A stretch of 63,990 nucleotides of DNA, filler included, from an uncultured bacterium (GTDB taxonomy: Bacteria > CAZSTA01): assembly GCA_964609495.1 (NCBI GenBank). It is 7 parts of 7 records of this genome, joined end to end, with 100 filler letters (N's around TTAATTAATTAA, not from the genome) between each part and the next. Parts side by side here need not be neighbours in the genome. Positions count along the whole stretch, not along the records: positions 29,271 to 38,833 come from CAZSTA010000139.1; 6 more parts are not named here. The stretch is one strand, 5' to 3'. This document shows positions 12,931 to 62,418 of this stretch, piece after piece (within the stretch, counting starts at the first letter, position 1; every line of letters starts with the position of its first letter). The translations under genes were made by a program, and so were the position numbers. Under the pieces are notes generated by a model that saw nothing but the letters and a program-made list of their open reading frames with translations, had not been told where the DNA came from and did not search any database.

Positions 12931-15282
12931 ATGTCGAAGAAGATAGTTAATGATTATCTTAAAAACTGGACTTCTTTTGAAAAGACCTCTAGGGGAGTAG
13001 AGTTCAGCTGTCAAACAAGTCAAGGAAAGGAAGTGCATTTCCGTTTAGAAGTAGTCTCTGAGGATATATTACGCCTCCGGATGAATCCTGGGGGTATAAA
13101 GGAGAAAAAGAGTTTCATCTTAACCGAGGAGAAATGGCCTCCTCCTAAGTTCTCCCTGGAGGAGTCTGAGAAAGCTCTAGTGGTAAAAACTGAACATCTC
13201 CATACAGAGATCAAAAAAGACCCTTGGGAGGTTTCGATAAGGGATTCTGAGGGCAGATCGGTATTCAGAGAGAAAAACGATGATTTTAACGTCTTGAGAA
13301 AGCACGAAATTTCTCCTATCGGCTACGAATACGACCCCACCCAAGATAGCTACAAGGTGAGGGAAACTATAGCCATTGGAGCTGATGAGAAATTCTATGG
13401 TTTTGGAGAGAAGTTCTCCAGTCTAAACAAGCGGGGTCAGGTGATAACCTCCTGGACAACCGATGCCCTGGGGATCTCCACCCAAAGGTCTTATAAGAAC
13501 GTCCCCTTCTTCTTAAGCACCAATGGCTATGGCCTCTTTATCCACTCAACCTATAAGATCGCCTACAATATGGGAGCCAGTTCCTTCGTCTCGTATTCAT
13601 TTGAGATCGAGGATGCCGATCTCGATTATTTTCTGATCTACGGTCCCTCTTTTAAGGCGATTCTCAAACGCTATTCGGATTTAACAGGCTATGCGCCTAT
13701 GCCTCCTAAATGGTCCTTCGGGTTTTGGATGAGTAAGTTTGGATACCGAAACAGAAAGGAGGTGGAGGAGTTAACCGACAAACTCAGGAAGCGGGATATC
13801 CCCTGTGATGTAGTGCATATAGATCCCTACTGGATGGGCGATTTCTCCCAGTGGTGCGATCTAAAATGGGACGAGGAAAGATTCCCAAATCCGAAGGAGA
13901 TGATGGCTGAACTTAAAAAGAAGGGATTTAAAATCTGTCTCTGGGAGAATCCTTATGTTCCTACAACGACCCAGATGTTCAAGGAGGGAAAGGAAAGAGG
14001 TTACTTCGTTAAGGATTCCGATGGTTCGCCTTTCCTGATAAAGGGGTGGGCGGGGGATAATAGACTTGCTGTAGTAGATTTCACCAACCCCGAAGCCACA
14101 AAATGGTACCAAGATAAGCATAGGGAACTCCTTCAGATGGGCGTAGCCACCTTTAAGACGGATTTTGGGGAGTGGGCACCTGAAGATGGATATTATTATA
14201 ATGAGATGAGGGGAAAGGAAGCCCACAATCTATATCCCCTGCTTTACAATAGAGCTGTCTTCGAAACGATAGATGAATACACTCAAGGTAAGGCTTTGGT
14301 CTGGTCCAGATCAACATACGCTGGCTCCCAGAAATACCCCGTTCATTGGGGAGGGGATTGTAGGCCAACATACAAACATATGGCGTGCCAACTCAGGGGA
14401 GGCTTAAGCCTGGGGATGAGTGGCATACCTTTCTACGGTCATGATATGGGCGGTTTCGCTGGAGAGACTAATCCTAGGCTATACGTTCGCTGGTCTCAGT
14501 TCGGTTTCTTCTCCTCCCACTCTAGGAGCCACGGCGTTACTCCCCGTGAACCATGGGAGTTTGGAAAATCTGCTGAAGATATCTTCAGGAAGTATGATAA
14601 GCTCCGCTACCGCCTGCTGCCCTACATATATTCCTCAGCGAAGGTCTCAACTATGACCGGGCTCCCAGTTATGCGCCCTCTTATACTGGAGTACCAGAAC
14701 GATCCCAATACCCATAATCTGGATTTAGAATATCTCTTCGGGGAAAGCTTCCTGGTTGCGCCTTTGTTCAGCGAAGATGACGAGAGAAGTCTCTATCTTC
14801 CAGGGGGTAAATGGATCGACTACTGGAATAAGAAAGAATACGAAGGACCCAGTTGGATCGACTATTATGCTCCTTGGGATGTCCTTCCTTTGTTTGTTAA
14901 AAAGGGAGCTATTATCCCTATGGGACCTGAGATGAGCTATGTAGGGGAGATAGAAACAGATCCCCTAACCTTGGATATATATCCAGATGAAAGCGGAGAA
15001 TTTACCCTCTATGACGAAGATCAACCGTCGATAGATATCTCCTATAGCTCTACACCCTCTGGTCTTCAATTGACTATTGGTGAACTTGGGAGGAATCTCG
15101 AAATAATTCTCAACAACCTGACTAGGCCAAAGGACGTAAAGCTTGATGGCAACAGTCTCCAGATGTGCGGAACAGATAAGGATTTTGAAGATGCTGAGAA
15201 GGCCTGGAGATATGATGGGATGAGGGTTATGATTAAAGCTAGGGTCGAAAAGAGTGCGAAACTTCTAGTTGATCTCAAATAG
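12931..15282 (+). CDS. GH31 alpha-xylosidase (YicI-like)
   Basis: YGFGEKF, YKNVPFF, FKTDFGE nucleophile, HWGGD, HDMGGF. Confidence 0.92.
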   Translation: MSKKIVNDYLKNWTSFEKTSRGVEFSCQTSQGKEVHFRLEVVSEDILRLRMNPGGIKEKKSFILTEEKWPPPKFSLEESEKALVVKTEHLHTEIKKDPWEVSIRDSEGRSVFREKNDDFNVLRKHEISPIGYEYDPTQDSYKVRETIAIGADEKFYGFGEKFSSLNKRGQVITSWTTDALGISTQRSYKNVPFFLSTNGYGLFIHSTYKIAYNMGASSFVSYSFEIEDADLDYFLIYGPSFKAILKRYSDLTGYAPMPPKWSFGFWMSKFGYRNRKEVEELTDKLRKRDIPCDVVHIDPYWMGDFSQWCDLKWDEERFPNPKEMMAELKKKGFKICLWENPYVPTTTQMFKEGKERGYFVKDSDGSPFLIKGWAGDNRLAVVDFTNPEATKWYQDKHRELLQMGVATFKTDFGEWAPEDGYYYNEMRGKEAHNLYPLLYNRAVFETIDEYTQGKALVWSRSTYAGSQKYPVHWGGDCRPTYKHMACQLRGGLSLGMSGIPFYGHDMGGFAGETNPRLYVRWSQFGFFSSHSRSHGVTPREPWEFGKSAEDIFRKYDKLRYRLLPYIYSSAKVSTMTGLPVMRPLILEYQNDPNTHNLDLEYLFGESFLVAPLFSEDDERSLYLPGGKWIDYWNKKEYEGPSWIDYYAPWDVLPLFVKKGAIIPMGPEMSYVGEIETDPLTLDIYPDESGEFTLYDEDQPSIDISYSSTPSGLQLTIGELGRNLEIILNNLTRPKDVKLDGNSLQMCGTDKDFEDAEKAWRYDGMRVMIKARVEKSAKLLVDLK

Positions 15283-20165: not shown

Positions 20166-21098
20166 ATGAGAGGCTTGAGCAAGATTGGTATAGTCTTATC
20201 ATTGATGGCTGTCTTCGTAGGACAATTATTTGTTTTGAGCGCCTTGGGAGAGGAAAAGTCCGCTCCCATTTATAGCTCGGATTTTGCGGTTATGCAGCAA
20301 GGTAAAACCTTCTTTGGAAATCCGGCCGCCACTCCAGAGACCAAGACGAAGGAGACTAAATTCTATATAATGAAGAAGTTCAGCCCTACTGATGAACTGA
20401 CGCTGAGTATGGTCGGATATGAACAGCGCAGTAGGGGGCTTATAAGCATGGGAGCGACTGGTCAGACGGAGAGCTATCTGGGTGTTGCTCTCTTAGACCT
20501 TCGCTTCAAGAGTTTCTCTCGAACCACTCTTCGCCTCTCCTTCGGCCAAGAGCTAGGGGGAGCTTTCGCTAGTGGTGTTAATCTCAACCTTATGAACGAG
20601 AGACTCAATAACGAAAGCGAATTTAAATTGGGATTCGATATCGGATTTACTTACATACTCGTTCCTGATGAACTCACCGTGGGGATATTGATCCGAGATC
20701 TTACTGAGATGGGAGCAACAAAGAAAAAAGAAGAGAAAGAAGAGGAGGAAGGACAAGCTGAGGAGGATGAGGATAATGAGGAAGAAGAACTAATAGGGAT
20801 AGGAAGTAGTCTCTCTTTAGAGATAAATTATTGCCCCTTCAAAAGCACCTCCCTGATGCTTAGTATCAATCGCAGCCTAGGTGATAGTGGAGATACTGAG
20901 CCACATATTGTCATCTCTCTGGATTGGGAGGCTATGAGGAATCTGTTTCTAAGAGGTGGTTGGACCACTGAAGGAGAGGCTATAAGTTTAGGATTAGGGT
21001 ATAAAGCTGATGTATATAGATTCGATTACACCATCTCGCGAAGGGGAGAGGAGGAACTCGAGCATACGGTTGGGATCACTGCTAGTATCAGCTATTGA
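20166..21098 (+). CDS. PorV/PorQ (UPF0164)-like outer-membrane beta-barrel protein
   Basis: Signal peptide, NPAA, GFDIG, LFLRGG..SLGLGY..RFDY..H.VGI pattern, terminal aromatic residue; acidic insertion. Confidence 0.55.
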   Translation: MRGLSKIGIVLSLMAVFVGQLFVLSALGEEKSAPIYSSDFAVMQQGKTFFGNPAATPETKTKETKFYIMKKFSPTDELTLSMVGYEQRSRGLISMGATGQTESYLGVALLDLRFKSFSRTTLRLSFGQELGGAFASGVNLNLMNERLNNESEFKLGFDIGFTYILVPDELTVGILIRDLTEMGATKKKEEKEEEEGQAEEDEDNEEEELIGIGSSLSLEINYCPFKSTSLMLSINRSLGDSGDTEPHIVISLDWEAMRNLFLRGGWTTEGEAISLGLGYKADVYRFDYTISRRGEEELEHTVGITASISY

Positions 21099-24112: not shown

Positions 24113-26584
24113 ATGAACGCTTACGAGAGAATCTTCCAATCGCTCGAGGTAGCTGTTCTCATTTTGCTTTTAACCGTAGTTCTAAATTTTATCTTGTTCA
24201 ATGCAAAGGAGGTCGAAGCTGAAGATAAGATGAATACTTGGATACTGACTACAGATTCGTTCGTTGACTATACCCGCGTTTACTTAGGGAATGGATATAT
24301 AAGCACTCAAGTGCCAATAGAGGGCAATGGCTGGGCGGGATTTAAGCCGGTGAACTGCTATATAGCAGGAGTATATAATCAATCCGATCCTAAAAGGGTT
24401 ACTCATACCGCTATAGTTCCTCGTTGGAGTGCTCTAATCTATGATAATGGTTATCATAAGTTCTCCGTTGACAGCGGAGGGACTATCAAGCCCTACAGAC
24501 AGGAACTCGATCTCAGAGATGGATACATACGAACTACTTGTACCTGGGAGGATCGGGATAGAGTTACTGATCTAGATATTACTATTTTCGTCTCTCGTGA
24601 TGATGCCCATCGAGCAGTTATAAAATACTCTCTAGTTCCTCGCTTCACAGGAACAGTTAGGATTATAAATGTCCTTGATGGTTCTGCTTCTCCTGATCTA
24701 GAGGCGATAGAGAGCGGTAGCGATGCTGAAGGACAGCTGATCTGGCTGGAGACCGAAACAGGGGAATCGCAGATCGATATCGTTGAGGCTTCCATCCTCG
24801 CTTCCTCATCTGGCGTAAAATTTGAAGATGTTGAATATGAGGCTGATAAGAGTGGCAAGATTACATGGCAGAGGATATCTTTCCCAGTAGTAGCAGATGA
24901 GAAATATACTTTCTACAAATATGTCTCGGTTTATACATCTTTAGATTCGAGGGATCCACTAGAGGAAGCTAGAGAATCCGTGTTAGTAAGTGCTGATATT
25001 GGTTATGAGGCTTGCTTTGAAAAGCATCGAGCCGCTTGGCATAATATTTGGGAAACTGATATCGAGATCGAGGGAGATACGGAGCTTCAAAAGATGATTC
25101 ATTCTCAGATATTCTTTCTGCTAAATAGTATAAGGGCCGGATGGGATTGGTCCATTGCGCCAATGGGAATCTCCAGCAGTGGATTTAATGGTCATATCTT
25201 CTGGGATGCGGAGACTTGGATGTATCCACCTCTACTTTTGATGCATCCAGAGTTGGCTGAATCGATGCTCAGATATAGATATAACACCCTGTCTGGAGCG
25301 CAACAGAAGGCTAAGGAGAACGGATATGAGGGGGCGATGTTCGCTTGGGAGAGCGCCTCGACTGGAGTGGAGACGACTCCTAAATGGGCTGATACTGGCG
25401 AATACGAGCATCATATTACTGGAGATGTAGCTTTGGCTCAGTGGCAGTATTATCTTGTTACTCTGGATAAAGAATGGCTCGAAAGGTATGGATATCCGAT
25501 AATTTACGAAACCGCTAAATATTGGGTGAGTCGAGTGATTTATAACTCCGAGGCAGATCGCTATGAGGTAAGGGGCGTGATCTGTGCTGACGAATATTCG
25601 GGAGTAGTCGATAATAATGTCTTTACTAATGCAGTAGCGCAGAGGAATCTCTATATAGCGATCGAGGTCTGCAAATTGTTGGACAAGCCCTATCCGAATG
25701 AGTGGAAGACTATCGCTGATAAGATGTTCTTCCCCTTCGACAAAGTGGGGCAGAAATATCTGGAGTTCGAAGATTACGCAGGGCAACGGATAAAGCAAGC
25801 TGATACTAATTTACTGACGTATCCTCTGGAATTTCCTATGTCTGAAGATGTTAAGGCTAATGATCTCGACTACTACACCAAAGTCTTCGATGTGAATGGA
25901 CCTGCTATGAGTTCTAGCATATACTCGATCGTCTCCGCTGAGTTGGGGAGAAGAGAAGGGGCTTATGAATACTATGTCAGAAGCTACAAGCCTAATGTCA
26001 AACTACCTTTCTATGCCTTCAGCGAGACCCCGATAAATAATAACTTCTGCTTTCTAACGGGAATAGGTGGATCGCTACAGAGCTTAATTTATGGCTTCAC
26101 TGGTTTGAGAATCCATAAGAAGGGATTAGCTTTTACCCCTTTTCTCCCCGAGGAGTGGGATCAGCTCAAGCTGAAGAACTTCAAGTTCAGGGGTGCCTCC
26201 TACGATATAGTGGTCAAGAAAGGGGATGGAGGCTCGTTTACTAAGAGCTGTGATAATTTAGCTTTAAGCCTCGAAGCTGATGACTATCGCTTAACTCCGA
26301 GAGGGAAATTACATCTTATCCTATCCCTGGCTAATGAGGGAGATACTGCTTTAAGGGAGGGGAAATTCGAACTTCGGCTACCTGAGGGATGGGAGATCGA
26401 GAGGGCGCAGAATAGTGAATTCAAGGAGTTAAAGGCTGGAGATACTATATCCGCTGATTTTGAGATAGCTGTCGGGGAGGAGATCGAGGGGGATTTCTCA
26501 TATATAGCGGGTTTACTTCTCTGTCAGAGAGAAGGAAAGAGGATAGAGGATGAGATAGGGTTTGAGGTTAGAATCGAAAAATAG
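24113..26584 (+). CDS. GH65 family glycoside hydrolase (acid trehalase/PGGHG-like) with C-terminal NEW3-like domain
   Basis: GHIFWDAETW, EHHITGD, ADEY, IKQAD, FLTG.GG.LQ; N-terminal hydrophobic segment; LPEGW. Confidence 0.88.
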   Translation: MNAYERIFQSLEVAVLILLLTVVLNFILFNAKEVEAEDKMNTWILTTDSFVDYTRVYLGNGYISTQVPIEGNGWAGFKPVNCYIAGVYNQSDPKRVTHTAIVPRWSALIYDNGYHKFSVDSGGTIKPYRQELDLRDGYIRTTCTWEDRDRVTDLDITIFVSRDDAHRAVIKYSLVPRFTGTVRIINVLDGSASPDLEAIESGSDAEGQLIWLETETGESQIDIVEASILASSSGVKFEDVEYEADKSGKITWQRISFPVVADEKYTFYKYVSVYTSLDSRDPLEEARESVLVSADIGYEACFEKHRAAWHNIWETDIEIEGDTELQKMIHSQIFFLLNSIRAGWDWSIAPMGISSSGFNGHIFWDAETWMYPPLLLMHPELAESMLRYRYNTLSGAQQKAKENGYEGAMFAWESASTGVETTPKWADTGEYEHHITGDVALAQWQYYLVTLDKEWLERYGYPIIYETAKYWVSRVIYNSEADRYEVRGVICADEYSGVVDNNVFTNAVAQRNLYIAIEVCKLLDKPYPNEWKTIADKMFFPFDKVGQKYLEFEDYAGQRIKQADTNLLTYPLEFPMSEDVKANDLDYYTKVFDVNGPAMSSSIYSIVSAELGRREGAYEYYVRSYKPNVKLPFYAFSETPINNNFCFLTGIGGSLQSLIYGFTGLRIHKKGLAFTPFLPEEWDQLKLKNFKFRGASYDIVVKKGDGGSFTKSCDNLALSLEADDYRLTPRGKLHLILSLANEGDTALREGKFELRLPEGWEIERAQNSEFKELKAGDTISADFEIAVGEEIEGDFSYIAGLLLCQREGKRIEDEIGFEVRIEK

Positions 26585-28517: not shown

Positions 28518-29170
28518 TTACAAATTATTTGATTTACAAAATTTAGCTAGGCGACATCCTTCACAGATTGGATCTTTTCTACAGTGTTGCTTTGCGTGTT
28601 CCACTATAAGGGCATGGTATTCGTTAAAAATAGCGGGGTTCTTTTCCAATCTAGTTGTAAAGATATTCTGAATTGTATTATAATTATCATCTAACGAGCA
28701 AAGTCCTAGCCTTGAAAATATGCGCTTGGTGTAGGTGTCAACAACAAAGTTTGGTTTATCGTAGGCATAAAGGAGTATGGAATCTACTGTCTCCGGACCC
28801 AATCCCCATATACCGAGCAAACCCTCTCTTGTTATTCTGCCTTCGAAACTCACGAAGGCTTTGAGTTTCTTAGCCTTCTGGTTGTAGTAGCCTGCTGGCT
28901 TTATGAGTTCTGCTAATTCCTCAAGGGAAGTTTGCGAAATAGCCTCTCTGGTTAGTGATTTATTCAATTTCATATTAGCTATTGCCTTCTCAACGTTCTT
29001 CCAGTTAGTAGATTGGGCGAGTATTGCGCCAGCACAGATCTCAAATTTTTCCCTATCTGTTTTTTCCCTTAACTTTAATTTTGGATCGTAAACAGGTTTC
29101 AAGCCTTTCGGTTCGGTAACTGGCCACCAACCTCGAGGACCGTAGTTTTCAAGTAGAATTTGGTATATCT
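28518..29170 (-). CDS. HhH-GPD endonuclease III-like DNA glycosylase, 5' truncated by linker
   Basis: YGPRGWWP upstream of the track start, GAILAQSTNW, GLGPETVDSILLY, C-terminal Cys cluster. Confidence 0.85.
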
Positions 29171-29513: not shown

Positions 29514-30449
29514 TTATCTACTATCCACTCGAAGTTCATAGCTCATATAACTTTCTCTGTCCCTATCTCCCCTGAAGAACATCGTCCCGATACCTCTGAC
29601 GGTGAATATCTCAAGCAAGAGAGCATCCTTCCTCGTGCCATCGATGATATGAGCCCTCTTTACCCCTCCCTCGATCGCCGAGAGGCAAGATTCTACCTTG
29701 GGGATCATCCCCTTGGTGATTATCCCTTCTTCGATGAGCAGACGAGCTTGTTCAATGTCAAGATAGGATATTAGAGATTCCTTATCGGCAGAATCCCTGA
29801 GGACCCCGGAGACATCGGTTATATTGATCAGTTTATCCGCCTTCATACAACTGGCTATCTTCCCCGCGATAACATCAGCGTTTATATTATAGATGTTACC
29901 CTCATCATCCGCCCCTAAGCAGGATATGACCGGAATATATCCAGAATCGACTAAAATTAGGAGGAGATCGGTATCGATACTGATAACATCTCCTACATGG
30001 CCAAAATCCACTTCTTGATACTTCCCTGTTTCCCTGTCCAACATCTTGGTGATTCCTCTCCTCTTGGCTTTAATTAATCCTCCATCGATTCCAGATAATC
30101 CTACTCCTTGAGAGCCATTCTTTCGCAAAGCGGAGACGATCTCGATATTTATCTTTCCCCCATAGATCATCTTCGCTATCTCTAGATCTTGATCCCCAGT
30201 TATCCTCCGTCCATTGATAACTTGGGGAGAATGTCCCAATCTTCTCGATAACTCGTTAGCCTGAGGTCCTCCTCCGTGAACTACGATCACTCTAATCCCT
30301 ACTTGGTGGAGGATGGTAATATCCTCAGTTAGAGAATTCAGGTTTTCAGGAACGCTGACTACATTACCTCCAAATTTAATGACGAATAAGTTATTTTTAA
30401 ACCTTTTTATATAGGGTAGAGCCTGCTTTAATGCGCTTACATCCTTCAC
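29514..30449 (-). CDS. argB: acetylglutamate kinase
   Basis: VIKFGG, VHGGGPQ, GRRIT, NINAD, GMIPK. Confidence 0.95.
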   Translation of the reverse strand: MKDVSALKQALPYIKRFKNNLFVIKFGGNVVSVPENLNSLTEDITILHQVGIRVIVVHGGGPQANELSRRLGHSPQVINGRRITGDQDLEIAKMIYGGKINIEIVSALRKNGSQGVGLSGIDGGLIKAKRRGITKMLDRETGKYQEVDFGHVGDVISIDTDLLLILVDSGYIPVISCLGADDEGNIYNINADVIAGKIASCMKADKLINITDVSGVLRDSADKESLISYLDIEQARLLIEEGIITKGMIPKVESCLSAIEGGVKRAHIIDGTRKDALLLEIFTVRGIGTMFFRGDRDRESYMSYELRVDSR

Positions 30450-31477
30450 TATCGATCCTCCGATTTAAGAATCGTCCTCAAAATGGCTTTTTGGATATGC
30501 AGTCTATTTTCCGCTTCATCATAAGCGATACAATCTGGGCCATCGAGAACTTCATCATCCACTACTATATTTCTGCGCACTGGTAAACAATGCATAAATT
30601 TTCCCTTGTCGGTCAAATTCATCCGCCTCTGGGTAACCCTCCAATCCTTCAACTCCTCCCTGATAGCTCTCTCCTCCTCCCACCGATTGTAGAAGGAGCG
30701 AGAGCCCCAACTCTTAGGATATATTATATCAGCGTTATGGAAAGCCTCATCCATATCATCCGTTACCGTAAGAGAGGTATCATTCTCCTCTATATTCTCT
30801 CTGACCACCCTCATTATATCCTCATCAAGCTCGTATCCTTTAGGGTGAGCGATGGTTAAGTTCATTCCGAATTTGCTTGCGGTTAAAACTGCGGAATCTC
30901 CCACACTCATCGGCAGGGGCTTAGGATGATATGCCCAGGTCAAGACGAAATTTTTCCCCTCTTGATTCCCCAGATGCTCCTTGATCGCCATCATATCAGC
31001 CATAGCTTGACAAGGGTGATAGAGATGCGATTCCATATTGATCACAGGAATATCTCCCCAACGAGCGAAACCGTTGATGATCTTATCCTTCCTCTCCTCG
31101 CTCCAATCGATCATATCTGGAAACTTCCTTATCGCTACCGCATCGCCATAACGAGATATCACCCTAGCCGCATCCTTGATATGCTCTGCCGCCTTTCCCT
31201 TCATCACTACTCCCTCTTCTACCTCCAAGTCCCATACCATTCCCCCTCCCACTTGAAGAACTACGGAATGACCACCAAGCTGAGACATCGCAACATCGAA
31301 GGAGGATCTAGTCCGTAGGGAGGGACTGAAGAATATCATAAATAAGGTCTTATTCGCCAAGGAGGAGTTGAACGGAGACTTCTTGAGCGCAAACGCCAAC
31401 TCGATCAGATAATCTAATTCCTCCCTCGACCAATCTTGAGTAGTAATAAAATTTCTGCCCTTGAGATTCATCGTCAA
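30449..31477 (-). CDS. argF: N-acyl-ornithine carbamoyltransferase (ArgF', AOTCase/SOTCase type)
   Basis: SLRT instead of STRT, extended ...EHIKD loop, LTWAYHPKPLP, KSWG, HCLPVRRN. Confidence 0.9.
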   Translation of the reverse strand: MTMNLKGRNFITTQDWSREELDYLIELAFALKKSPFNSSLANKTLFMIFFSPSLRTRSSFDVAMSQLGGHSVVLQVGGGMVWDLEVEEGVVMKGKAAEHIKDAARVISRYGDAVAIRKFPDMIDWSEERKDKIINGFARWGDIPVINMESHLYHPCQAMADMMAIKEHLGNQEGKNFVLTWAYHPKPLPMSVGDSAVLTASKFGMNLTIAHPKGYELDEDIMRVVRENIEENDTSLTVTDDMDEAFHNADIIYPKSWGSRSFYNRWEEERAIREELKDWRVTQRRMNLTDKGKFMHCLPVRRNIVVDDEVLDGPDCIAYDEAENRLHIQKAILRTILKSEDR

Positions 31478-32642
31478 TCTATCGCCTCCACTATCTCCCT
31501 AAGATTGGAGGTCAGAAGATCGACTTCCTCCTCCTTAACTATAAGAGGCGGCATTACCCTCATAACTTGAGGATCGGCTGAAGAACCAACGATGAAGCCT
31601 CTCTCCAACAGTTCATTTCGGATCTCCTTTATAGGCATATCGAAAACAACACCAATCAATAAGCCTAATCCTCTCAGTTCAACTATATGCTTAAGGGGTC
31701 TTAACTTCTCCCCTATATAATCTCCCATCCTCTTAGCATTATCAAATAGCCTCTCTTCCAGAACTATATTGAGGGAGGCTTTTGCGGCCGCACAGGCTAA
31801 GGGTCCACCTCCAAAGGTCGTCCCTTGCTCTCCATAAGATATAGTCTCAGCTATCTCCTTCTTGACCAGGACTGCCCCCATCGGAACGCCACTCGCTATC
31901 CCCTTAGCAGTGGTGATGAGATCTGGTATAACTCCCCAATTCTCTCCTGCGAACATCTTGCCAGTTCTCCCAAAGGCTGTTTGAACCTCATCGAAGATAA
32001 GGACTATTCCCTNNNNNNNNNNCGCAATCTCCGATAATATTCAGGAGAAGCGGTAACCGCCCCAGCTATGCTTTGCACTGGCTCCAGTATTATCGCCGCT
32101 ACCTCATCATCCACCAGCTCCTCAATGGACTTTATATCACCAAATTCCGCAAACTTATATTGAGTTAAGAGAGGCTTGAAGATGCGATATCTCTCGATTC
32201 CAGTGGCGGAGAGCGATCCGATAGTCCTCCCGTGAAATCCACCCTTCATCGAGATCACATACTCCCGATCGGTGAACTTCCTAGCCATCTTAAGCGCGGT
32301 CTCGTTCGCCCCGCTTCCAGAATTGCAGAGGAAAACCTGACTTATCCCCTCGGGAGCTATACTTATTAACAGCTCGCAAACTTCGGCTCTAACATCGTTG
32401 TAAGCAACATTGGAGTAAAAGATCAACCTCTCCGCTTGTTTTTGAATAGCTTCCACCAGTTTAGGATGACAATGACCAGTTATAGCGACCGCATGTCCTC
32501 CATAGAAATCGAGATACTCTTTATTATCGGAGTCATAGATCCTCATTCCCTCTCCTCTAACTAGAGCGATCGGGAATTTTCTATAAGTAGTAAGCTGGTA
32601 TTTATCCTCCTTCGCAATGATCTCCTTGGTATTCAATATCAT
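31474..32642 (-). CDS. argD: acetylornithine aminotransferase (split by 10-N gap 32013-32022)
   Basis: [39 protein letters not shown]. Confidence 0.9.
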
Positions 32643-32741: not shown

Positions 32742-33296
32742 TTACGTATCAAACTCACCCTTAGCCAACCTTAATACTGACTCGATGAATTGAGCTTTGC
32801 CCTCTGTATAGGCTCCACGATTGGTTTGAAACTTCTGGGCTAGATCCCTCTTGATCTTGGAATATTCATCTGCTACTTCTTTATGCTTACGGAGATAATC
32901 TCGAAAGAGTAAATAGTCTATCCAGGAATCACTTTTCCATTCAACTATATGCAAGTAGTGAGTCCTTCTGCTTGGATCCCCTTTTGCGAAAAGAACGCTT
33001 CTGGGGTCTTCTCTCCTGAATTCGTAACCCAAACGTTCAAGTGGCTCGCCGATGTATTTCCTCACCCCTTGAAGTCGCTGGACGGCTGCCGCTATATCAA
33101 TGATAGGTTTTGCCTCAAGTCCAGGGATTGCTGTGCTTCCAACATGCTGAATGTCAATCACGTAATTCCCGATAGAAGATTGCAATAACCTTTTCTCTTC
33201 CTCAAAAAGCCTCTCCCACTCAGAAGAGTAGGGAAGGAGTTTGACGATTCCTCTCGGCAAGCCAATTAGATCTGAGCTCTCTGTGATTTGCACCAA
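32742..33296 (-). CDS. GrpB family nucleotidyltransferase-fold protein
   Basis: HVGSTAIPGL.AKPIIDI, FRDYLR, Y..GK. Confidence 0.88.
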   Translation of the reverse strand: MVQITESSDLIGLPRGIVKLLPYSSEWERLFEEEKRLLQSSIGNYVIDIQHVGSTAIPGLEAKPIIDIAAAVQRLQGVRKYIGEPLERLGYEFRREDPRSVLFAKGDPSRRTHYLHIVEWKSDSWIDYLLFRDYLRKHKEVADEYSKIKRDLAQKFQTNRGAYTEGKAQFIESVLRLAKGEFDT

Positions 33297-33318: not shown

Positions 33319-34338
33319 CTAAGGATGTGTTCCAGGGAAAGTCAATCCTGTCCTCTCCTCAAAACCAAAGATCAAATTCATATTTTGAATCCCCTGTCCC
33401 CCAGCTCCCTTTACTAAATTGTCTATAGCTGAGGCGACGATGACCTTATTCCCTCGACAGTGAAGTTCTATATCGCAAAAATTTGAACCTGCCACTACGG
33501 CACATCTCGCTTGCTCAACGATCCTTATGAAGTATTCCTTATCGTAATAATCTTCATATATCTCCCTCAACCTCTCTTCGCCGATCTCCTCTTCCAAGAA
33601 GATATAAGCGGTAGTGAATATTCCTCGCACCATCGGGGCAGAATGAGGGGTAAAGGTTATATCGAAGGGAGTAGAGTTGAAACGGGCTAACTCCTGCTCT
33701 ATCTCTGGTTGATGTCTATGAGAGAAGACATTGTAAACCTTGAAATCCATCGCTCGTTCCGGATGATGGGTCGTGAGTTTGGGACTCACTCCCGCTCCTG
33801 AGGAACCTGTCTTGGCATCGATGACAACATATCCGCTTAACATATTCTCCATCGCCAGAGGAGTTAAAGGTAATAGCACTCCTGTGGGAAAACATCCGGG
33901 GCAGGCTACTAAATCAGCCCCTCTTATCGCCTCTCTATTGAACTCGGTTAGACCATAAACTGCTCTCTTAAGAAGCTCAGGAGATTTATGGGCAAGTCCA
34001 TAGTGATTCTCGAAAATCTTGGGGTCTTTCAATCTGTAATCGCCGCTCAGATCGATTATCTTGGTCTTTCCTAAAAGCGCGGGAACTCTTTCCATCGCCT
34101 TCCCGTGAGGTAAAGCGAGGAATACCACATCCGAGATGTCGGCGATCTCATCGAGATCTTCCTCGCTAAATTCCAGATCTAATAAGCCGTATAGATTAGG
34201 ATGGATCTCACCCACCGATTTACCCATCTCGGTTCTCGAGGTTACCTTTACTATCTCCACCTCGCTATGGCCAAAGAGAAGACGTAATAACTCACTTCCT
34301 CCATATCCAGTTCCACCTATTATCGATGCTTTGATCAT
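33319..34338 (-). CDS. argC: N-acetyl-gamma-glutamyl-phosphate reductase
   Basis: GGTGYGG.EL, ALPHG, DLSGDYRL, PGCFPT, GSSGAG, IDNLVKGA. Confidence 0.96.
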   Translation of the reverse strand: MIKASIIGGTGYGGSELLRLLFGHSEVEIVKVTSRTEMGKSVGEIHPNLYGLLDLEFSEEDLDEIADISDVVFLALPHGKAMERVPALLGKTKIIDLSGDYRLKDPKIFENHYGLAHKSPELLKRAVYGLTEFNREAIRGADLVACPGCFPTGVLLPLTPLAMENMLSGYVVIDAKTGSSGAGVSPKLTTHHPERAMDFKVYNVFSHRHQPEIEQELARFNSTPFDITFTPHSAPMVRGIFTTAYIFLEEEIGEERLREIYEDYYDKEYFIRIVEQARCAVVAGSNFCDIELHCRGNKVIVASAIDNLVKGAGGQGIQNMNLIFGFEERTGLTFPGTHP

Positions 34339-35357
34339 TCGAACAACTTCCTCTCCACCAACTCCGCCAATCTTTTACCATCGGTTCTAGCATTAGCCGC
34401 TGGAATATCGAGATCTTTCTCCGAGAACTCCGTCCCCACCTCATTGTCGGTAGTTGGGCCAGACATAATATCTATCCGTAATCCATAATTACCCTCGAAG
34501 ATCTGCATTGCTCCCCAAGCCCCAACTGGATCGTTAGCACACATCACGTGAACTTTGGTGAATTTCATTATCTCAGGATCTTTTAAGATCATACCAACTC
34601 CATAGCCACCTAGGATTCCATCGCCCAACTCCACCACTATAAAATCCAAGTCCAATTTATTAAGCTCGTAAATAATTCCTTTAGTCGAGGGGGCTACATT
34701 CTCGATATTAGTCGTAGAAGGAAGTCCAGCATTGACAAAGCTCAACGCCTCCTTAGCACCATGATCCCTCATATTAAGAGTATCCCTCATCAGAGCGATA
34801 CCAGTAACCTTTGCCGCCGCGATACGATATCCCCTCAAAGTTAGATATTTAATGATCTCACAAGCCGCGTAGGTCTTCCCTGAGTTCATACATGTGCCAG
34901 AGACCATCACGATCGGCATGCTGTGGGTTAATTCATTTCTCCACTCTATCGCATTTTGTCTTATATTCGCCTTCCTTCCATCGATCGAGATCGAACCCAG
35001 GACTTGAACCCTCAGTGGATCACCGACATCCTTATTCTCAGAAGTGCACAACCCTATAGTTCCACCTAAGTTCAGAATATTAAGAACATCTCCTACCTCT
35101 ATCTCCTTGGGAATCTTCCCTGCAAAACCCCTTAGAGCCCTTCTCTCTCCCAGAGCTCCAGCTATTATATCTCCCTCTAGGATCTTAGCCATCCTTCCTG
35201 AGACCAATTCAATAGTATCATATACGGTCTTTTCTCCCAGCGCCTTGACAACTAGAACGTTTCCCTCCTCAGGCTCTACCTCCTCCTCTATCTCCACCTC
35301 TTCTGACAAATTCAAATTCATAGTAATCGAAGCAATTTTACTCACCTTGATCAGCAA
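34335..35357 (-). CDS. DUF1611/DgcN-like P-loop protein in the arg operon
   Basis: GTCMNSGKT P-loop, AAKVTG, VVELGDG; overlaps both argG and argC. Confidence 0.65.
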   Translation of the reverse strand: MLIKVSKIASITMNLNLSEEVEIEEEVEPEEGNVLVVKALGEKTVYDTIELVSGRMAKILEGDIIAGALGERRALRGFAGKIPKEIEVGDVLNILNLGGTIGLCTSENKDVGDPLRVQVLGSISIDGRKANIRQNAIEWRNELTHSMPIVMVSGTCMNSGKTYAACEIIKYLTLRGYRIAAAKVTGIALMRDTLNMRDHGAKEALSFVNAGLPSTTNIENVAPSTKGIIYELNKLDLDFIVVELGDGILGGYGVGMILKDPEIMKFTKVHVMCANDPVGAWGAMQIFEGNYGLRIDIMSGPTTDNEVGTEFSEKDLDIPAANARTDGKRLAELVERKLFE

Positions 35358-36561
35358 AATCCTCGGCCCTCCTCGCTAATATACTCTGTAATCCATATAT
35401 CTTACAGAAGCCCTCTGCATCTCGTCCATCCCAGAGGATAGATTCCTCACCATAAGTTGCGATATCCCTATTCATCAACGAATGTCTGCTTCTATATCCT
35501 AAAACATTTATATTTCCTTTATATAACTGGACTCTAACCTCCCCAACTACGCGCTCCTGACTGCTATCGATCAGAGCCTTTATATCCTTCATAACTGGAT
35601 CGAAGTATAATCCCTCGTGTAAGAAGTTGCCGAAGAACTCGCTTAATTGGGATTTCCAGAAGCGCTGCCATCTAGTAAGCACCAACTTCTCCAGCTCTCG
35701 GTGGGCAGTAATTAGGATCAATGGTGCACCTGCCTCGAAAGCGATCCTGCCTTTGATACCAAGGATCGTATCGCCTAGATGTATTCCCCTTCCAACTCCG
35801 TGCTTGGCGGCAATCTCATTTAATCTAGCTATAAGCGGAACTCCTTCAAGTTTCTCCCCATTCAAGCTTATAGGGACTCCCTTATCGAAGCCGATCTTTA
35901 ACTCCTCAGGCTCATCCGAGGCTTTGCTAGGAGAGATGGTCTTAGTATATACCTCCTCTGGAGGAGATTGCCAAGCATCGTGTATAACGCCTCCTCCAAT
36001 AGTAGTTCCCCATAATCCCTCATTTATCGAATAGACCTTTCTTTCTTTGGATACTGGGATACCTCTTTGTTCGAGGAAAGCGGTCTCCTTATCTCTGGTA
36101 ATCCCCAACTTTCTTATCGGAGCAAATATCTTCATTTCGGGAGCTAGAACTGAAAGCGCGACATCGAAACGAATCTGATCGTTTCCTCCGCTGGTGGAGC
36201 CATGCGCTATCGCCTCTGCCCCCTCTCCTCTAGCGACATTCACTACCTCTTCGGCTTGGACGACTCTTTCTGCCCCTACGCAAAGAGGATAAGTTCCTCC
36301 TCGCAGAATATTCCCCTTTATGATATAGGTTACGAACTCATCATATACCTTTCTCCGGCCATCGATCGTGTAATGCCGAAACGCTCCTAGCTCTTGAGAT
36401 CGTCTCTCTATATCTTCTAACTCCTGCGGAGAGAAACCTCCTGTATCAACGGTTACCGTAATTATATCTGCGTTATACTCCTCTTTAAGATAAAGCACAC
36501 AAAAGGAAGTATCCAGACCTCCTGAAAAAGCTAACACGATTTTTTGTTTTTCCTCTTGCAT
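35338..36561 (-). CDS. argG: argininosuccinate synthase
   Basis: LAFSGGLDTS, HGST..GNDQ.RF, YSIN.GLWG, IKGRIAFEA. Confidence 0.96.
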   Translation of the reverse strand: MQEEKQKIVLAFSGGLDTSFCVLYLKEEYNADIITVTVDTGGFSPQELEDIERRSQELGAFRHYTIDGRRKVYDEFVTYIIKGNILRGGTYPLCVGAERVVQAEEVVNVARGEGAEAIAHGSTSGGNDQIRFDVALSVLAPEMKIFAPIRKLGITRDKETAFLEQRGIPVSKERKVYSINEGLWGTTIGGGVIHDAWQSPPEEVYTKTISPSKASDEPEELKIGFDKGVPISLNGEKLEGVPLIARLNEIAAKHGVGRGIHLGDTILGIKGRIAFEAGAPLILITAHRELEKLVLTRWQRFWKSQLSEFFGNFLHEGLYFDPVMKDIKALIDSSQERVVGEVRVQLYKGNINVLGYRSRHSLMNRDIATYGEESILWDGRDAEGFCKIYGLQSILARRAEDFADQGE

Positions 36562-54318: not shown

Positions 54319-57300
54319 TTATTTTAGTTCTGCGGTATGTTTGTTATAAGGAACTATACTAACCTTGCCCATAATACCGGTGGGGACTGGCTTGCCCAAC
54401 ATATTCGCCGAGGTGTTGGTAACGATTATCTCCAACTTATTCTCACCCTCGGTCACAAAGGAGGTTATATCTAAAACGTATGGACTCCAGAGGCATACGT
54501 CAGCCTTCTGACCGTTGATCAGGACTTCAGCGGTATTCCGAACATCCTCGAACTCAAGCATAAGCCTTTTATCGAGATAGCCCGAGGAGAGGATGAAGCT
54601 TTGACGGTAGGTGATCTCCCCGCTGTAATTAGGTAATCCCTGTTTAGTCAGATCGCCACTTTCGAGCTGACGATTGAACTCGACTACCTTATTACCTTTA
54701 ACCATAAAGCTACCCTCCAGGGCTATAGGCTCTATCCCATGAGTGCTGGGGAATTGAGAATGGAAGGCAGGCATCCTGGTCTTTATCGTGATCTTATTCT
54801 CTCCGATAGTAAGGTGATCTTTAAGAGCGATGCGCTTGTTGCATTTATCCCACAGGAAGTAATCCTCCGCTTGCTCATCGATCCGAGTGGAGTTGAGTGT
54901 TATCTCGATCGGCTCTCCTAGATCTTCATACACTAAACCGATATCCTCGGGGATATAGCTTACATTGAAGCTCGTCGTTATCTCATACTCCGAGCCAGGA
55001 GGCGGATAAATTTCCGTTATACCTAATCCAGCTCTCTTAGATATCTCCGAGAATAAGCTGAGTCGCTCGGAGATCCCCATATCTTCTATGTTGATACCAA
55101 GCATTGTCGGGATCTTATCCATCGTCTCCAGAAATTCAAAGATGGATGTATAGCGACTGATCGCCAATTTTTTACTACGAGGGCCTATCTGTTCCTTCAA
55201 CCTACTTATCGCCCCTAATATCCCAGTGGTCAATTTGGCTCGGAAGGATAGTTCCTTCATCTCCCATACACTTCCGATTTCTTCTTCCTTCTTTATCTCC
55301 TCCGCCGCGACGATCGTCCAAGGCTCCAACATAAACACGTTTCGCTGCTTCAATTCGATATTCCAAGTATTGGGAAGAACTATCGCCTCGATGATCCCAG
55401 TATCGGTAGTAACCGTCAAGAACTCCTCTCCAACCCGGATGAAGGGGTTATCGAGGCGAGAATAACCCTCAACTCCCTCAGAAGTGACCTCGGTCACGGC
55501 GATATTCGTTGAGGAGATATGAGGCGCTTCCTCCTGCGGTGAGATAACCAGATAGAGGGCCTCGTGAGGAGGGAAGGTATAAGGGACATAGGTGTTGTTA
55601 TCATCGGTCTCATAGGCATAAGCAGGCTGAATCTCACCGGTATCGGCGTGCCAAATCTCGACTCTTCCCTTAGCCCTAAGGCTTATCCTTGCTTTGATCT
55701 GTTTCGAGGAGAGGTTAGCTACGAAATAGAAATCGGTATCATCGATTCGGCGATGGAGATATACCATCGGATGGCGATCCTCGGTTTCGATCGCCAGATC
55801 AGCGGGAAGATAATCATTTAACACCTCGGTGAGTATCTTCTCCGCCTTTGCTTCCTCATCGACATCAACTCCGGATAGGTAGATAGCACAGCCGCCCTCA
55901 TCTCGCTCTCGGATTATGTATTCCCTAGTTCCGTCCTTCTTACCTAGAAGTCGCTTTGCTCTCCTTCCGAATATCTCTCCGATGAGTTCCGCGATTCTTG
56001 GATCGTTCTCCTTCTCTGGAGAGCTAGAGGGGAGAGACCCGAGAGCGATTATGATCCCTCCTGCTTTATAGAAATCCCTCAGTAGTTCAAGAACTTGAGT
56101 AGGGATAACCTTGATCGGTGGTAGGATAACCGCCCTGAATCGCTCTTGATTGATACGTAACGCGTCTTCCTCGACCTGAGCTTTCCCCTCGAGGACAACC
56201 TCCTCAAAGAGGTAATCATAATCCCTCTGGATATGCAGAAGTCCGTCGGAGATCGCGGTGAAGGAGTTCTTGAGTAGTTTCCAGCTATCGGATTTATTAT
56301 ATAAGGTATGTTCCGCCCACATAGAGCTCATCGGATAGAAGAGCAGGATATCGGCTATATGGATCCCTTGACTAACTAAATAGCTGTTTCGAGAGATATA
56401 GGCGGAGAATTTATCGTAGTATTTCCACCAGGGGGCTTGAACGAAATGGGTAGCTGGAAAGTCCCTCTTCCTTAATCCTTTCAAAGAGACGAAAGAGGCG
56501 TGGGGATTGAAGAGGTTAACGCCAGTAGCTAAGGCCCAATTAGTTGTATCTTTCAACTTCTCAAGGGTGGTGTCCCAGCCACATCCCCCGAATATCTCAC
56601 AGAGGGTTCGGTCTGCTCCCTTAGCATGAGCGGTGCTGCTCAACTGCTTAGGTCCTACGTTGAAGCCGAGGGAAGCCAGCATCGGATCATAGCCACTTTT
56701 ATCTCCTAAGTAATCGATCCCGGGTACGTTCATCTCCCCAATCGTAGCGTAGAAGCCCCCATGCTGATTGGGTAAGGAGGTGAGATCTTCCTCTAAGAGA
56801 AGATGTCCAGTGAATTTTAATCCCTTCTCATCGCACCATCTTCGGATCTGCTGGAAGAAGGCTTCCGTGTATAGCTCTAAGGCTATCTGATGATAGTCAC
56901 ATCTCGTCTTGATATAATCGCCACGTGAAAGCACTAGTTCGTGCATTTTATCAAGAAGATCGTATCCCTTACGCTTTTTGAATTCCTCCAAGAAGTTCTT
57001 CGTCCACTGGAGTCCGCGATAGTTCGCTGGCTCATCGGTGAAGATGCCGGGAATCGTATTCCCGAACTCCTCTGAGAATCGCTTAGCATATTCCTCATGG
57101 GTATAATCCATAAACTTTCGCACCGCGGCAGGATTTAGAAGATCTAGGTATCCTCTCTCCGCCTTAGCCCAAGGGGCATCTCCAGTCGAGAAGAACTGAT
57201 CGGGCATCACGCGGGTGAAGAATACTATCACCTGCCAACTACCATCCGAGGGCTTCCAACGAAAGGTGTTATCGCTAGATACACGCTCCCCTAAGTCTAT

Positions 57301-57750
57301 CCTCCTATCATCTCCTTCCTCGATAGCGACAGCTAATACTAACTCTGCATCATCGGGTAGGCTAGCTTCACAAGTAAAGCCTCTTTTCGCCTTAACAGTG
57401 ATATAATCGAGATAGGTTTGACGATACTCGGGATATTCTCTGAGTAACTTTCCTCCAACAGGCCCACTAGGCCAGTTGTATTCATCATACATCCAGGCTT
57501 GCATCTCTAACTCCTTCGCTTTCTCAACAGAAGCTTGGATACCTCTCCAGAATTGATCGGAGAGGTATTCCACCTCCATACCAGTCCGAGGATGCATAAA
57601 CACACCTGCTACGCCCTTCCTCTGCTGTTCCTCTAATGATCCCTGAAGACTCTCTGGAGATAGATCGTTGTTCATAAACCAGAAAGGCATAGGACCATAC
57701 TCAAAAGGCGGGTTTTTGAATTTATCTTTTAATTCCTCGCTTGTCATCAT
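54319..57750 (-). CDS. large glycoside hydrolase, GH106 alpha-L-rhamnosidase-like
   Basis: F.NPP...P.PFWF.N, HPR.G, YDE.NWPSG, FTDEP, E.FG..GW, C-terminal GH2-type sugar-binding domain. Confidence 0.8.
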   Translation of the reverse strand: MMTSEELKDKFKNPPFEYGPMPFWFMNNDLSPESLQGSLEEQQRKGVAGVFMHPRTGMEVEYLSDQFWRGIQASVEKAKELEMQAWMYDEYNWPSGPVGGKLLREYPEYRQTYLDYITVKAKRGFTCEASLPDDAELVLAVAIEEGDDRRIDLGERVSSDNTFRWKPSDGSWQVIVFFTRVMPDQFFSTGDAPWAKAERGYLDLLNPAAVRKFMDYTHEEYAKRFSEEFGNTIPGIFTDEPANYRGLQWTKNFLEEFKKRKGYDLLDKMHELVLSRGDYIKTRCDYHQIALELYTEAFFQQIRRWCDEKGLKFTGHLLLEEDLTSLPNQHGGFYATIGEMNVPGIDYLGDKSGYDPMLASLGFNVGPKQLSSTAHAKGADRTLCEIFGGCGWDTTLEKLKDTTNWALATGVNLFNPHASFVSLKGLRKRDFPATHFVQAPWWKYYDKFSAYISRNSYLVSQGIHIADILLFYPMSSMWAEHTLYNKSDSWKLLKNSFTAISDGLLHIQRDYDYLFEEVVLEGKAQVEEDALRINQERFRAVILPPIKVIPTQVLELLRDFYKAGGIIIALGSLPSSSPEKENDPRIAELIGEIFGRRAKRLLGKKDGTREYIIRERDEGGCAIYLSGVDVDEEAKAEKILTEVLNDYLPADLAIETEDRHPMVYLHRRIDDTDFYFVANLSSKQIKARISLRAKGRVEIWHADTGEIQPAYAYETDDNNTYVPYTFPPHEALYLVISPQEEAPHISSTNIAVTEVTSEGVEGYSRLDNPFIRVGEEFLTVTTDTGIIEAIVLPNTWNIELKQRNVFMLEPWTIVAAEEIKKEEEIGSVWEMKELSFRAKLTTGILGAISRLKEQIGPRSKKLAISRYTSIFEFLETMDKIPTMLGINIEDMGISERLSLFSEISKRAGLGITEIYPPPGSEYEITTSFNVSYIPEDIGLVYEDLGEPIEITLNSTRIDEQAEDYFLWDKCNKRIALKDHLTIGENKITIKTRMPAFHSQFPSTHGIEPIALEGSFMVKGNKVVEFNRQLESGDLTKQGLPNYSGEITYRQSFILSSGYLDKRLMLEFEDVRNTAEVLINGQKADVCLWSPYVLDITSFVTEGENKLEIIVTNTSANMLGKPVPTGIMGKVSIVPYNKHTAELK

Positions 57751-61371: not shown

Positions 61372-62418
61372 TCAATAACCGGGTATGAACAATTCCATAT
61401 AAGTGTTCATCGCATATCTATCGGTCATCCCTGCTAGGAAATCACAGATGACCCGTTTGATATCCCCTTGTTCCTCCTTATATTTATATCTATCTCTTAA
61501 CTTCTCGGGGTTATCTAAGAAGAAGTTATACAACTCTTTGACTATATGGATCGCCTTCTCCCGCTGTTTTCTGATCTGAGTTGCTCCTGTATAGACCTCC
61601 TGAAATAGAAACTCACGCAATTTATCGGTCTCATCCAGAACTTCAGGACTCATCTCAATGGTATCCTTATTCCAACTGGCGCGAACAATATCTTTAACCA
61701 TCGTATCTATTCGCTGGGAGTGAGTATATCCTAAAACCTCTAAACAACTGTGAGGAAGATCACTTTCGGAGATGATCCCTGCCCGTAGAGAATCATCAAT
61801 GTCGTGATTGATATAAGCGACGCTGTCGGCGATTCTCACAACCTGTCCTTCCAAAGCAATCGGTTTATCCTCTTCCCCAGCCTTTAAGATGGACTCTCGG
61901 ACCTTGGAGTGCTTAAGGATTCCATCTCGAACCTCCCCGCTCAGATTCAATCCATTCTTGCCCTCTAAAATATCTACCACCCGTAAGCTCTGCTCATTAT
62001 GTCTGAAACCATCGAAATATACCTCATCGAGAGCGAACTCCCCAGCATGGCCGAAAGGGGTATGTCCTAGATCGTGTCCCATCGCGATCGCCTCGGTAAG
62101 ATCTTCGTTGAGTCTTAAAGCTCTGGCTATCGTTCTAGCGATTTGAGATACCTCTAAGGTATGAGTTAGTCTGGTGCGGAAGTGATCTCCTTCAGGAGAG
62201 ATAAAGACTTGAGTCTTATGCTTAAGACGACGAAAAGCCTTGCAATGAATTATCCGATCTCTATCCCTTTGAAAGATCGTCCTTATTTCACAGGGCTTTT
62301 CCTCTCTTTCTCGACCACGAGAGGCAGAACTTAAAGTCGCATAGGGAGATAGATGTTGCTCTTCAAACTTTTCCCATAAGCGACGAGGAGGTAGAGTATT
62401 GAAACTGCTTTTGTTCAC
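61372..62418 (-). CDS. dgt: deoxyguanosinetriphosphate triphosphohydrolase
   Basis: [41 protein letters not shown]. Confidence 0.95.

Follow-up and report, generated by a model that had tools for sequence, protein, structure and literature searches.

We analyzed a 63,990-nucleotide stretch of DNA from an uncultured bacterium (GTDB lineage CAZSTA01; GenBank assembly GCA_964609495.1), which consists of seven joined parts and is called the window here, and focused on a gene in its arginine biosynthesis cluster that we call X. X encodes a two-domain protein with a phosphate-binding loop (P-loop). Judged from sequence, gene context, and structural models, this protein is likely to catalyze the first step in an arginine pathway of the linear ArgF' type, as an N-acyl-L-glutamate synthase that does not belong to the GCN5-related N-acetyltransferases (GNAT). 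An original prediction, made from the window sequence by itself, had proposed X as this missing enzyme, and the proposal is now supported by conserved gene context, by exclusion of other candidates, by a fusion of X to ArgB, and by a preprint that makes the same prediction. The functional idea is not new. What is new is the mapping of conserved X residues onto the catalytic set of dethiobiotin synthetase (BioD), the X-ArgB and X-ArgC fusions, and the relatives of X outside arginine clusters. The window thus adds a family member and mechanistic leads, not a discovery.

X is the second gene of a cluster that reads argG-X-argC-grpB-argD-argF'-argB by Pfam and NCBIfam models. See Table 1 for the coordinates of all features. 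The 340-amino-acid open reading frame (ORF) described in the original prediction was found on the minus strand with all three of its motifs, GTCMNSGKT at residues 154-162, AAKVTG at 181-186, and VVELGDG at 240-246. It overlaps both neighbors, as had been claimed: the X stop and the argC start share the letters ATGA, and X starts with a TTG located 20 nt within argG. This TTG is the start of X, not the internal ATG of codon 13, because residues 1-12 are conserved in homologs and are modeled at high confidence; K7, S10, and T12 are each at least 90% conserved in an alignment of closer relatives (A2).

The order proposed earlier held from argG to argB. It had ended in argH, but a HhH-GPD DNA glycosylase gene follows argB instead. 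The interval between the two, ~400 nt, is too short for argH and is partly N, and the 3' end of the operon is not fully readable because of the N runs in the intergenic stretch after argB. No argH, ArgJ, GNAT/ArgA, or M20 deacylase was present among the 40 window ORFs of at least 150 amino acids that were searched with Pfam. Two smaller window ORFs, compared with PDB sequences, were IspF and a URO-D-like fragment and likewise gave no ArgA, ArgJ, argH, or M20. Among the ORFs searched, the claim that argA and argJ are missing from the sequenced part stood. The argD gene is split into two ORFs by a 10-N gap. GrpB matches were found in none of the 85 other loci examined, which ruled grpB out as part of a conserved arginine system; it looks like a lineage-specific insertion in an otherwise compact operon.

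The position of X is strongly conserved among its relatives, which favors the proposed role. A metagenome scan with A2 confirmed 567 relatives, and the best 80 were analyzed, whose proteins share 44-56% identity with X (95% in one case). Arginine genes in these loci were called by BLAST with the arg proteins of the window and of a further locus (L001). At least one arg gene was present in 74 of the 80 loci, the other six being contigs of 1.5 kb or less. Where the contig had room, ArgG lay directly upstream of X in 57 of 60 loci (exceptions L011, L013, and L066) and ArgC directly downstream in 54 of 56 (exceptions L027 and L049). The script count for ArgG was 55, with L010 and L015 lost as artifacts of overlapping stop-to-stop ORFs. 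The argG-X-argC linkage is thus nearly fixed, as would be expected if the original prediction were right.

Downstream sequence of 6 kb or more was available in 23 loci; all of them carry ArgC, and most carry ArgD (22), ArgB (22), ArgG (22), ArgF' (21), and ArgH (17). The fuller clusters read argR-argG-X-argC-argD-argF'-argB-(M20 deacylase)-argH. Here, argR stands for a 20-member ORF group upstream of argG, of which one representative was tested with Pfam and was ArgR, and the deacylase stands for a 7-member group between argB and argH, of which both representatives tested were Peptidase_M20. CarA lies within the cluster in two loci. L001, whose X protein is 48% identical to that of the window, has the order argG-argF'-X-argC-argD-argB-(AstE/aspartoacylase-like)-argH. 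The candidate deacylase genes between argB and argH are at 14050-14916 in L001 (AstE-like), 15327-16469 in L042, and 15233-16387 in L051 (both M20). By these family assignments, all steps downstream of N-acyl-glutamate are accounted for in the fuller clusters. What remains is one step with no gene, the first, and one conserved gene with no assigned role, X, which points to X as the enzyme of the first step.

Furthermore, fusions join X to the next two enzymes of the pathway, which also favors this role. P0195 (626 amino acids) consists of X and an acetylglutamate-kinase-like domain (TIGR00761, 127 bits; best family argB) and is identical on four contigs. P0271 (731 amino acids) consists of X and ArgC, and could be a frameshift artifact because X and argC overlap. 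A third form, P0237 (519 amino acids), has a response-regulator receiver domain before X. A search for longer fused forms, weak by its own account, returned one protein. The X-ArgB form recalls ArgA, in which an acetylglutamate-kinase-like domain of the amino acid kinase family is fused to a GNAT domain; ArgA and ArgJ have the role proposed for X and an unrelated fold. A GNAT-type N-succinylglutamate synthase, again with the same pathway role and an unrelated fold, has reportedly been described for Bacteroides.

We also looked for the known first-step enzymes in genome assemblies, using 201 sampled genomes of one small-genome phylum reached through L001. Four of these have a strong X match (G001, G085, G097, and G119). 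ArgJ (PF01960) was found in none of these four small assemblies, and ArgA (TIGR01890) in none above cut-off, as the two matches obtained were the ArgB genes of the clusters. The lack of ArgJ and ArgA in these genomes, with none found in the window, favors X as the first-step enzyme. In G001 and G085, X lies inside arginine clusters. Besides the argC of its X cluster, G085 (L089, L091) has a second full-length argC gene on a different contig; both score above cut-off.

The same role has been predicted, without experiment, for the Steroidobacter protein ACG33_RS14135 (A0A127FCT3) in a preprint on GapMind from 2026 (bioRxiv 10.1101/2024.10.14.618325, section 11 and Appendix 2). The grounds given there are that this hypothetical protein is almost always encoded in arg operons, with argB, argC, argD, argF', argG, argH, argR, and sometimes an argE candidate; that it has a remote Foldseek match to 7XRJ (E 1.4e-7); that it never occurs together with ArgA of the Pseudomonas aeruginosa type; and that position 92 of the neighboring ArgF' is A, P, S, or V (or T, I, rarely Q), not Glu (bioRxiv 10.1101/2024.10.14.618325). 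We saw all four traits again for X, the ArgA trait on four small assemblies, and from these common traits the two families are very probably one and the same. As the preprint reached its prediction from independent data, it favors the proposed role, and it bears out the original suspicion that a similar proposal might already exist in the literature. The preprint takes the protein to be an acyl-CoA transferase by analogy with DgcN (bioRxiv 10.1101/2024.10.14.618325), whereas the residue pattern of X also accommodates an ATP-dependent ligase. Our literature search gave no paper linking DUF1611 with arginine and, at the level of titles, no N-succinylglutamate synthase of the X fold apart from this preprint.

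X belongs to a large family without a functional name. A word-indexed protein search, in which 8000 candidates were scored, gave 4350 homologs at E ≤ 0.001. The best 120 are 52-64% identical to X over the full length; every name given among them is "hypothetical protein," and 118 have no precomputed Pfam domain. Named sources include Limnocylindrales, Wallbacteria, Planctomycetota, Thermoanaerobaculia, Chloroflexia, and two archaeal labels. An exhaustive search of 50%-identity representatives gave 1367 matches at E ≤ 0.001 and 142 at E ≤ 1e-30. X matched no NCBIfam model, and the family as a whole has neither a Pfam nor an NCBIfam model. The Atlas clusters closest to P0003, a homolog used as a stand-in for X, are mostly from Pseudomonadota; some are automatically named "DUF1611 domain-containing protein," and PF07755 is assigned to 16% of the members of one cluster. 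In an alignment of 71 family sequences (A1), G160, K161, K183, and E243 are invariant, and T162, D192, D238, and D276 are at least 90% conserved.

An AlphaFold2 model of X built from A1 has two domains and high confidence scores (predicted local distance difference test [pLDDT] 97.8, predicted template modeling score 0.94). Residues 1-125 are all beta, and residues 149-340 form an alpha/beta P-loop domain. The N-terminal domain has no relative in the PDB by VIA-align (best Z 3.2 among 48161 chains; the 48 rows at Z ≥ 2 include none from DUF1611) or by Foldseek (best E 0.64). For the C-terminal domain, Foldseek against the PDB returned SRP54/FtsY, BioD, and HypB from 2.4e-6, with many nucleoside triphosphatases (NTPases) of the signal recognition particle, MinD and BioD (SIMIBI) class at similar E values; the DUF1611 chain 2obn ranked 12 (8.8e-6) and DgcN 7xrj ranked 46 (4.7e-5). 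VIA-align, an independent search, placed two DUF1611 chains first (2g0t_B, Z 17.4; 2obn_A, Z 16.4), followed by BioD (16.2 for 1a82, then 15.8 and 15.8), DgcN (7xrj_A, 15.7), ApbC (15.4), and CTP synthase (15.2). By the rule of the tool itself, these values are near-ties. All of these matches span ~180 residues (~181 for the DUF1611 chains), essentially the C-terminal domain of X.

The original prediction had assigned X to the DUF1611/DgcN family, and this assignment did not hold. At E ≤ 10, X matched only three Pfam families: MobB (E 6e-4, 20.1 bits), CbiA (E 0.031), and DUF1611_C (PF07755; E 0.026), the last at 14.4 bits against a cut-off of 25 and over residues 144-182 only. There was no GNAT or ArgJ match in Pfam or NCBIfam, even at E ≤ 10. 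Weak Pfam matches (E ≤ 0.01) among the 71 members were to MobB (31), CbiA (26), DUF1611 (15), and AAA_26 (9, best E 1.8e-4); X itself had no AAA_26 match at E ≤ 10. A PF07755 search of G001, G085, G097, and G119 did not detect X. For comparison, we took a DUF1611 protein from genome G054, which scores 208 bits with PF07755 and matches 2obn (2.5e-56), DgcN 7xrj (1.5e-44), and 2g0t (4.9e-40). Against this protein, the X family profile gave 17.2 bits in hmmsearch and an hhalign probability of 26.6 (E 7e-4) over 70 columns, which cover the P-loop and strand 2 only. A PDB search with the X family profile matched only the P-loop of FtsY, BioD, and MobB (BioD at E 1.3e-4 over ~50 residues) and no DUF1611 chain at E ≤ 10. 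A PDB search with the single protein gave a clostridial pore-forming toxin at a best E of 1.1, which we disregarded as a chance match.

Like X, the DUF1611 proteins, including DgcN (7XRJ, 2G0T, and 2OBN; PF07755), have a SIMIBI P-loop domain of the same general architecture, a P-loop of the GT-x4-GK[TS] type, and a Glu in an E-G-x-G motif. Unlike X, they have no Lys at the position of the invariant K183. The G054 protein, 2obn, 7xrj, and 2g0t all have TGQT and EGQG where X has AAKVTG and ELGDG, with only the Glu in common. Furthermore, the all-beta N-terminal domain of X matched no PDB chain, DUF1611 chains included, and probably differs from theirs in fold. Therefore, the structure search upheld the P-loop fold (tied with BioD), while the Pfam profile and the TGQT motif spoke against membership. 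In our reading of these alignments and models, X would form a family of its own within the BioD/DUF1611 branch of P-loop proteins. The C-terminal domain of X does resemble DgcN 7xrj, the one solved glutamate N-acyltransferase of this fold, and this favors the proposed role. Going by the title of PDB entry 7XRJ and the papers citing it, DgcN uses acetyl-CoA; it N-acylates glutamate as X is proposed to do, but the D-isomer and in catabolism.

The best profile alignment we obtained was with Escherichia coli BioD (hhalign probability 80.8, E 1.3e-5) over 103 columns from the P-loop through the Walker-B-like strand. K161 and T162 of X align with the P-loop Lys and Thr of BioD; the Lys of "GYK" is matched by K183 and the Glu of "VEGAGG" by E243. 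These BioD residues are K15, T16, K37, and E115, which serve in ATP binding, Mg binding, and phosphoryl transfer. Unlike X, BioD is a single domain of ~225 amino acids without the beta N-terminal domain, and it closes the ureido ring in biotin synthesis, whereas X stands in an arginine context. The N-terminal domain of CTP synthase, a related ATP-dependent synthetase domain, is also similar to the C-terminal domain of X.

If the proposed role is correct, X would N-acylate L-glutamate, most probably with a succinyl group, to give the substrate of ArgB. The C-terminal P-loop domain would bind the activating co-substrate by its nucleotide part, which would be ATP itself or, if the analogy with DgcN applies, the ADP moiety of succinyl-CoA, and the all-beta N-terminal domain would probably contribute the glutamate or succinate site. 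N-succinylglutamate would then pass through ArgB, ArgC, ArgD, and ArgF', and a deacylase, M20 or AstE-like in related clusters and not found in the window, would release citrulline for ArgG and ArgH. Within this role, succinyl-CoA is our tentative first choice of donor at somewhat below even odds, ATP with free succinate is a lesser possibility, and any other arrangement has very little weight.

The ATP-dependent route is the strongest rival to an acyl-CoA transferase. Here, X would be a CoA-independent ligase of the dethiobiotin synthetase type that converts succinate to an acyl phosphate, which the amino group of L-glutamate attacks to give N-succinylglutamate, ADP, and Pi. We regard this as a serious alternative, though less likely than not. 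In its favor, the invariant K161, K183, and E243, with T162, fall on the ATP, Mg, and phosphoryl-transfer residues of BioD, whereas in DUF1611 proteins, including DgcN, the position of K183 is not a Lys and the alignment with the X profile is weaker. BioD and CTP synthase also lie within ~1-2 Z units of the DUF1611 chains, and the two genomes with X in arg operons, G001 and G085, gave no SucC or SucD. To our knowledge, however, there is no ATP-dependent N-acyl-glutamate synthetase. The top two structural matches are DUF1611 chains, weak Pfam matches to DUF1611 outnumber those to AAA_26 (15 against 9 of 71 members), and the one characterized enzyme of this fold class that N-acylates glutamate reportedly uses acetyl-CoA, again going by the 7XRJ title and citing papers. 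Additionally, G001 and G085 each have one 2-oxoacid:ferredoxin oxidoreductase, which could supply succinyl-CoA. A broader form of the ligase idea, which we think rather unlikely, is that X represents a new class of ATP-dependent N-succinyl-L-glutamate synthetase in which the all-beta domain presents L-glutamate, and that its paralogs outside arg clusters acylate other amines in small-genome bacteria.

The identity of the acyl group was approached through the neighboring ArgF'. Replacement of Glu92 with A, P, S, or V switches ArgF' to N-succinylornithine, and T and Q are not among the residues described there as conferring succinyl specificity (bioRxiv 10.1101/2024.10.14.618325). The window ArgF' has Ala97 at the position of Glu92 of the Xanthomonas campestris enzyme. 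Its best PDB match is 3l02, an X. campestris chain with Ala, while 3m4n and 3l05 have Glu or Ser there. Among 35 ArgF' rows next to X, this column has A in 12, T in 11, V in 6, Q in 4, S in 2, and E in none; the rows include the window, count one place twice (L001 and L002), and leave out ORFs that cover less than 60% of the query. Gln occurs in L001, L003, and L027, including both clusters from the small-genome phylum. Because no row has Glu at the acetyl-specifying position and the window has Ala, the sequences favor N-succinyl intermediates, firmly for the window but with less force where the residue is T or Q. The choice of acetyl or succinyl left in the original prediction is thereby narrowed toward succinyl.

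It is improbable, in our estimate, that X transfers another group, such as acetyl or another small acid, at least in part of the family. The T and Q residues (11 and 4 rows) are not shown in the preprint to give succinyl specificity, and the window ArgF' overall resembles the Xanthomonas acetyl enzyme (355 bits) far more than the Bacteroides succinyl enzyme (183 bits). Against this, Glu is present in none of the 35 rows, and the Ala of the window is one of the four residues reported in the preprint to switch ArgF' to succinyl.

There is a slim chance that X is instead an accessory NTPase for another arginine enzyme, active, for example, in metal delivery or assembly like HypB, UreG, and MeaB, or a regulator. 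HypB, MeaB, and UreG are among its Foldseek and VIA-align matches, P0237 carries a receiver domain, and relatives occur outside arg clusters. However, the three matches rank below BioD and DUF1611, the first step would be left without a gene in otherwise complete clusters, and ~55% identity across phyla together with a conserved extra domain suits an enzyme. Lastly, we give almost no credence to X as the missing N-acylcitrulline deacylase, a substitute for ArgE: although no deacylase was found in the cluster of the window and Steroidobacter also has no ArgE according to the preprint (bioRxiv 10.1101/2024.10.14.618325), X shares clusters with M20 (the 7-member group, two tested) or AstE-like candidates, no amidohydrolase is known to be built on a P-loop NTPase fold whose Walker A Lys is invariant, and its fusion partners ArgB and ArgC act early in the pathway.

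Several observations weigh against X as an N-acyl-L-glutamate synthase. The likeness to DgcN covers the P-loop domain only, which is common to many NTPases, and X resembles BioD just as well. Support for the role consists of sequence, context, and models, and the preprint likewise offers a prediction. The 80 loci are the nearest relatives and not a random sample of the family. The cluster of the window itself yielded neither a deacylase nor argH, and the ArgA/ArgJ search for the source organism covers the 64-kb window, so that such a gene may lie elsewhere in the genome. The four X-bearing genomes are small assemblies whose completeness is not stated. In two of them, G097 and G119, full-length relatives that are 39% identical to X and have intact motifs lie outside arg clusters, next to L20/IF3 (rplT/infC) in one genome and to genes for FKBP and an Fe-alcohol dehydrogenase in the other, and ArgB and ArgC were not found in either assembly. 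Therefore, the X family is not strictly tied to arginine synthesis. These relatives, a new observation here, may be a paralogous subfamily with another substrate.

If the proposed role is correct, the arginine pathway of thousands of bacteria and some archaea would begin with an enzyme not related to ArgA or ArgJ; the sources named include Planctomycetota, Chloroflexota, Acidobacteriota, Pseudomonadota, candidate phyla, and small-genome lineages. Such genomes would now be scored as lacking the first step, and predictions of auxotrophy in uncultured organisms would be distorted by this. Whether the pathway needs a pool of succinyl-CoA would depend on whether X works with acyl-CoA or with ATP.

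Table 1. Features of the X gene, its protein, and its surroundings; positions are those of the window unless another locus is named
Feature	Position	Strand	Evidence or remark
X	34335..35357	-	340-aa ORF, two-domain P-loop protein; candidate N-succinyl-L-glutamate synthase
X N-terminal domain, residues 1-140, all-beta	34938..35357	-	Modeled alone, pLDDT 96.8
X C-terminal domain, residues 141-340, BioD/DUF1611-like SIMIBI P-loop fold	34338..34937	-	VIA-align, Foldseek
Walker A/P-loop GTCMNSGKT, residues 154-162	34872..34898	-	G160 and K161 invariant; aligns to E. coli BioD P-loop
Lys183, end of strand 2	34809..34811	-	Invariant in A1; aligns with Lys of BioD "GYK"
Glu243 in VVELGDG, Walker-B-like	34629..34631	-	Invariant in A1; aligns with Glu of BioD "VEGAGG"
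argG, argininosuccinate synthase, first gene of the cluster	35338..36561	-	NF001770 393 bits (cut-off 334); Pfam Arginosuc_synth and Arginosuc_syn_C
argC	33319..34338	-	TIGR01850 401 bits (cut-off 233.6)
grpB-family gene	32742..33296	-	PF04229 1.68e2 bits; between argC and argD
argD, N-acylornithine aminotransferase	31474..32642	-	Aminotran_3 and TIGR00707 on both ORF pieces
argF', N-acylornithine carbamoyltransferase	30449..31477	-	NF003384 "N-acetylornithine carbamoyltransferase" 456.6 bits (cut-off 288)
argB, N-acylglutamate kinase, last arg gene of the cluster	29514..30449	-	TIGR00761 235.9 bits (cut-off 151.3)
HhH-GPD DNA glycosylase, next gene after argB	28518..29102		Pfam/NCBIfam
X relative in G097 (locus L004)	1486-2550		
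X relative in G119 (locus L005)	1483-2514		

The window as a whole has a GC content of 43.7%, several N runs, and frequent TTG and GTG starts among its long ORFs. Three ORFs had no Pfam family at E ≤ 1e-5, at 1296-3113 (minus strand, 605 amino acids), 20166-21098 (plus strand, 310 amino acids), and 62415-63986 (minus strand, 523 amino acids). Large glycoside hydrolases (GH2, GH31, and GH106-like) are abundant in the flanks of the arginine cluster, at 4648-7236, 12931-15282, 24113-26584, and 54319-57750. The flanks also carry PD40 beta-propeller proteins, two adjoining deoxynucleoside kinase genes (3335-4602), and an ispD-ispF pair (113-1289).

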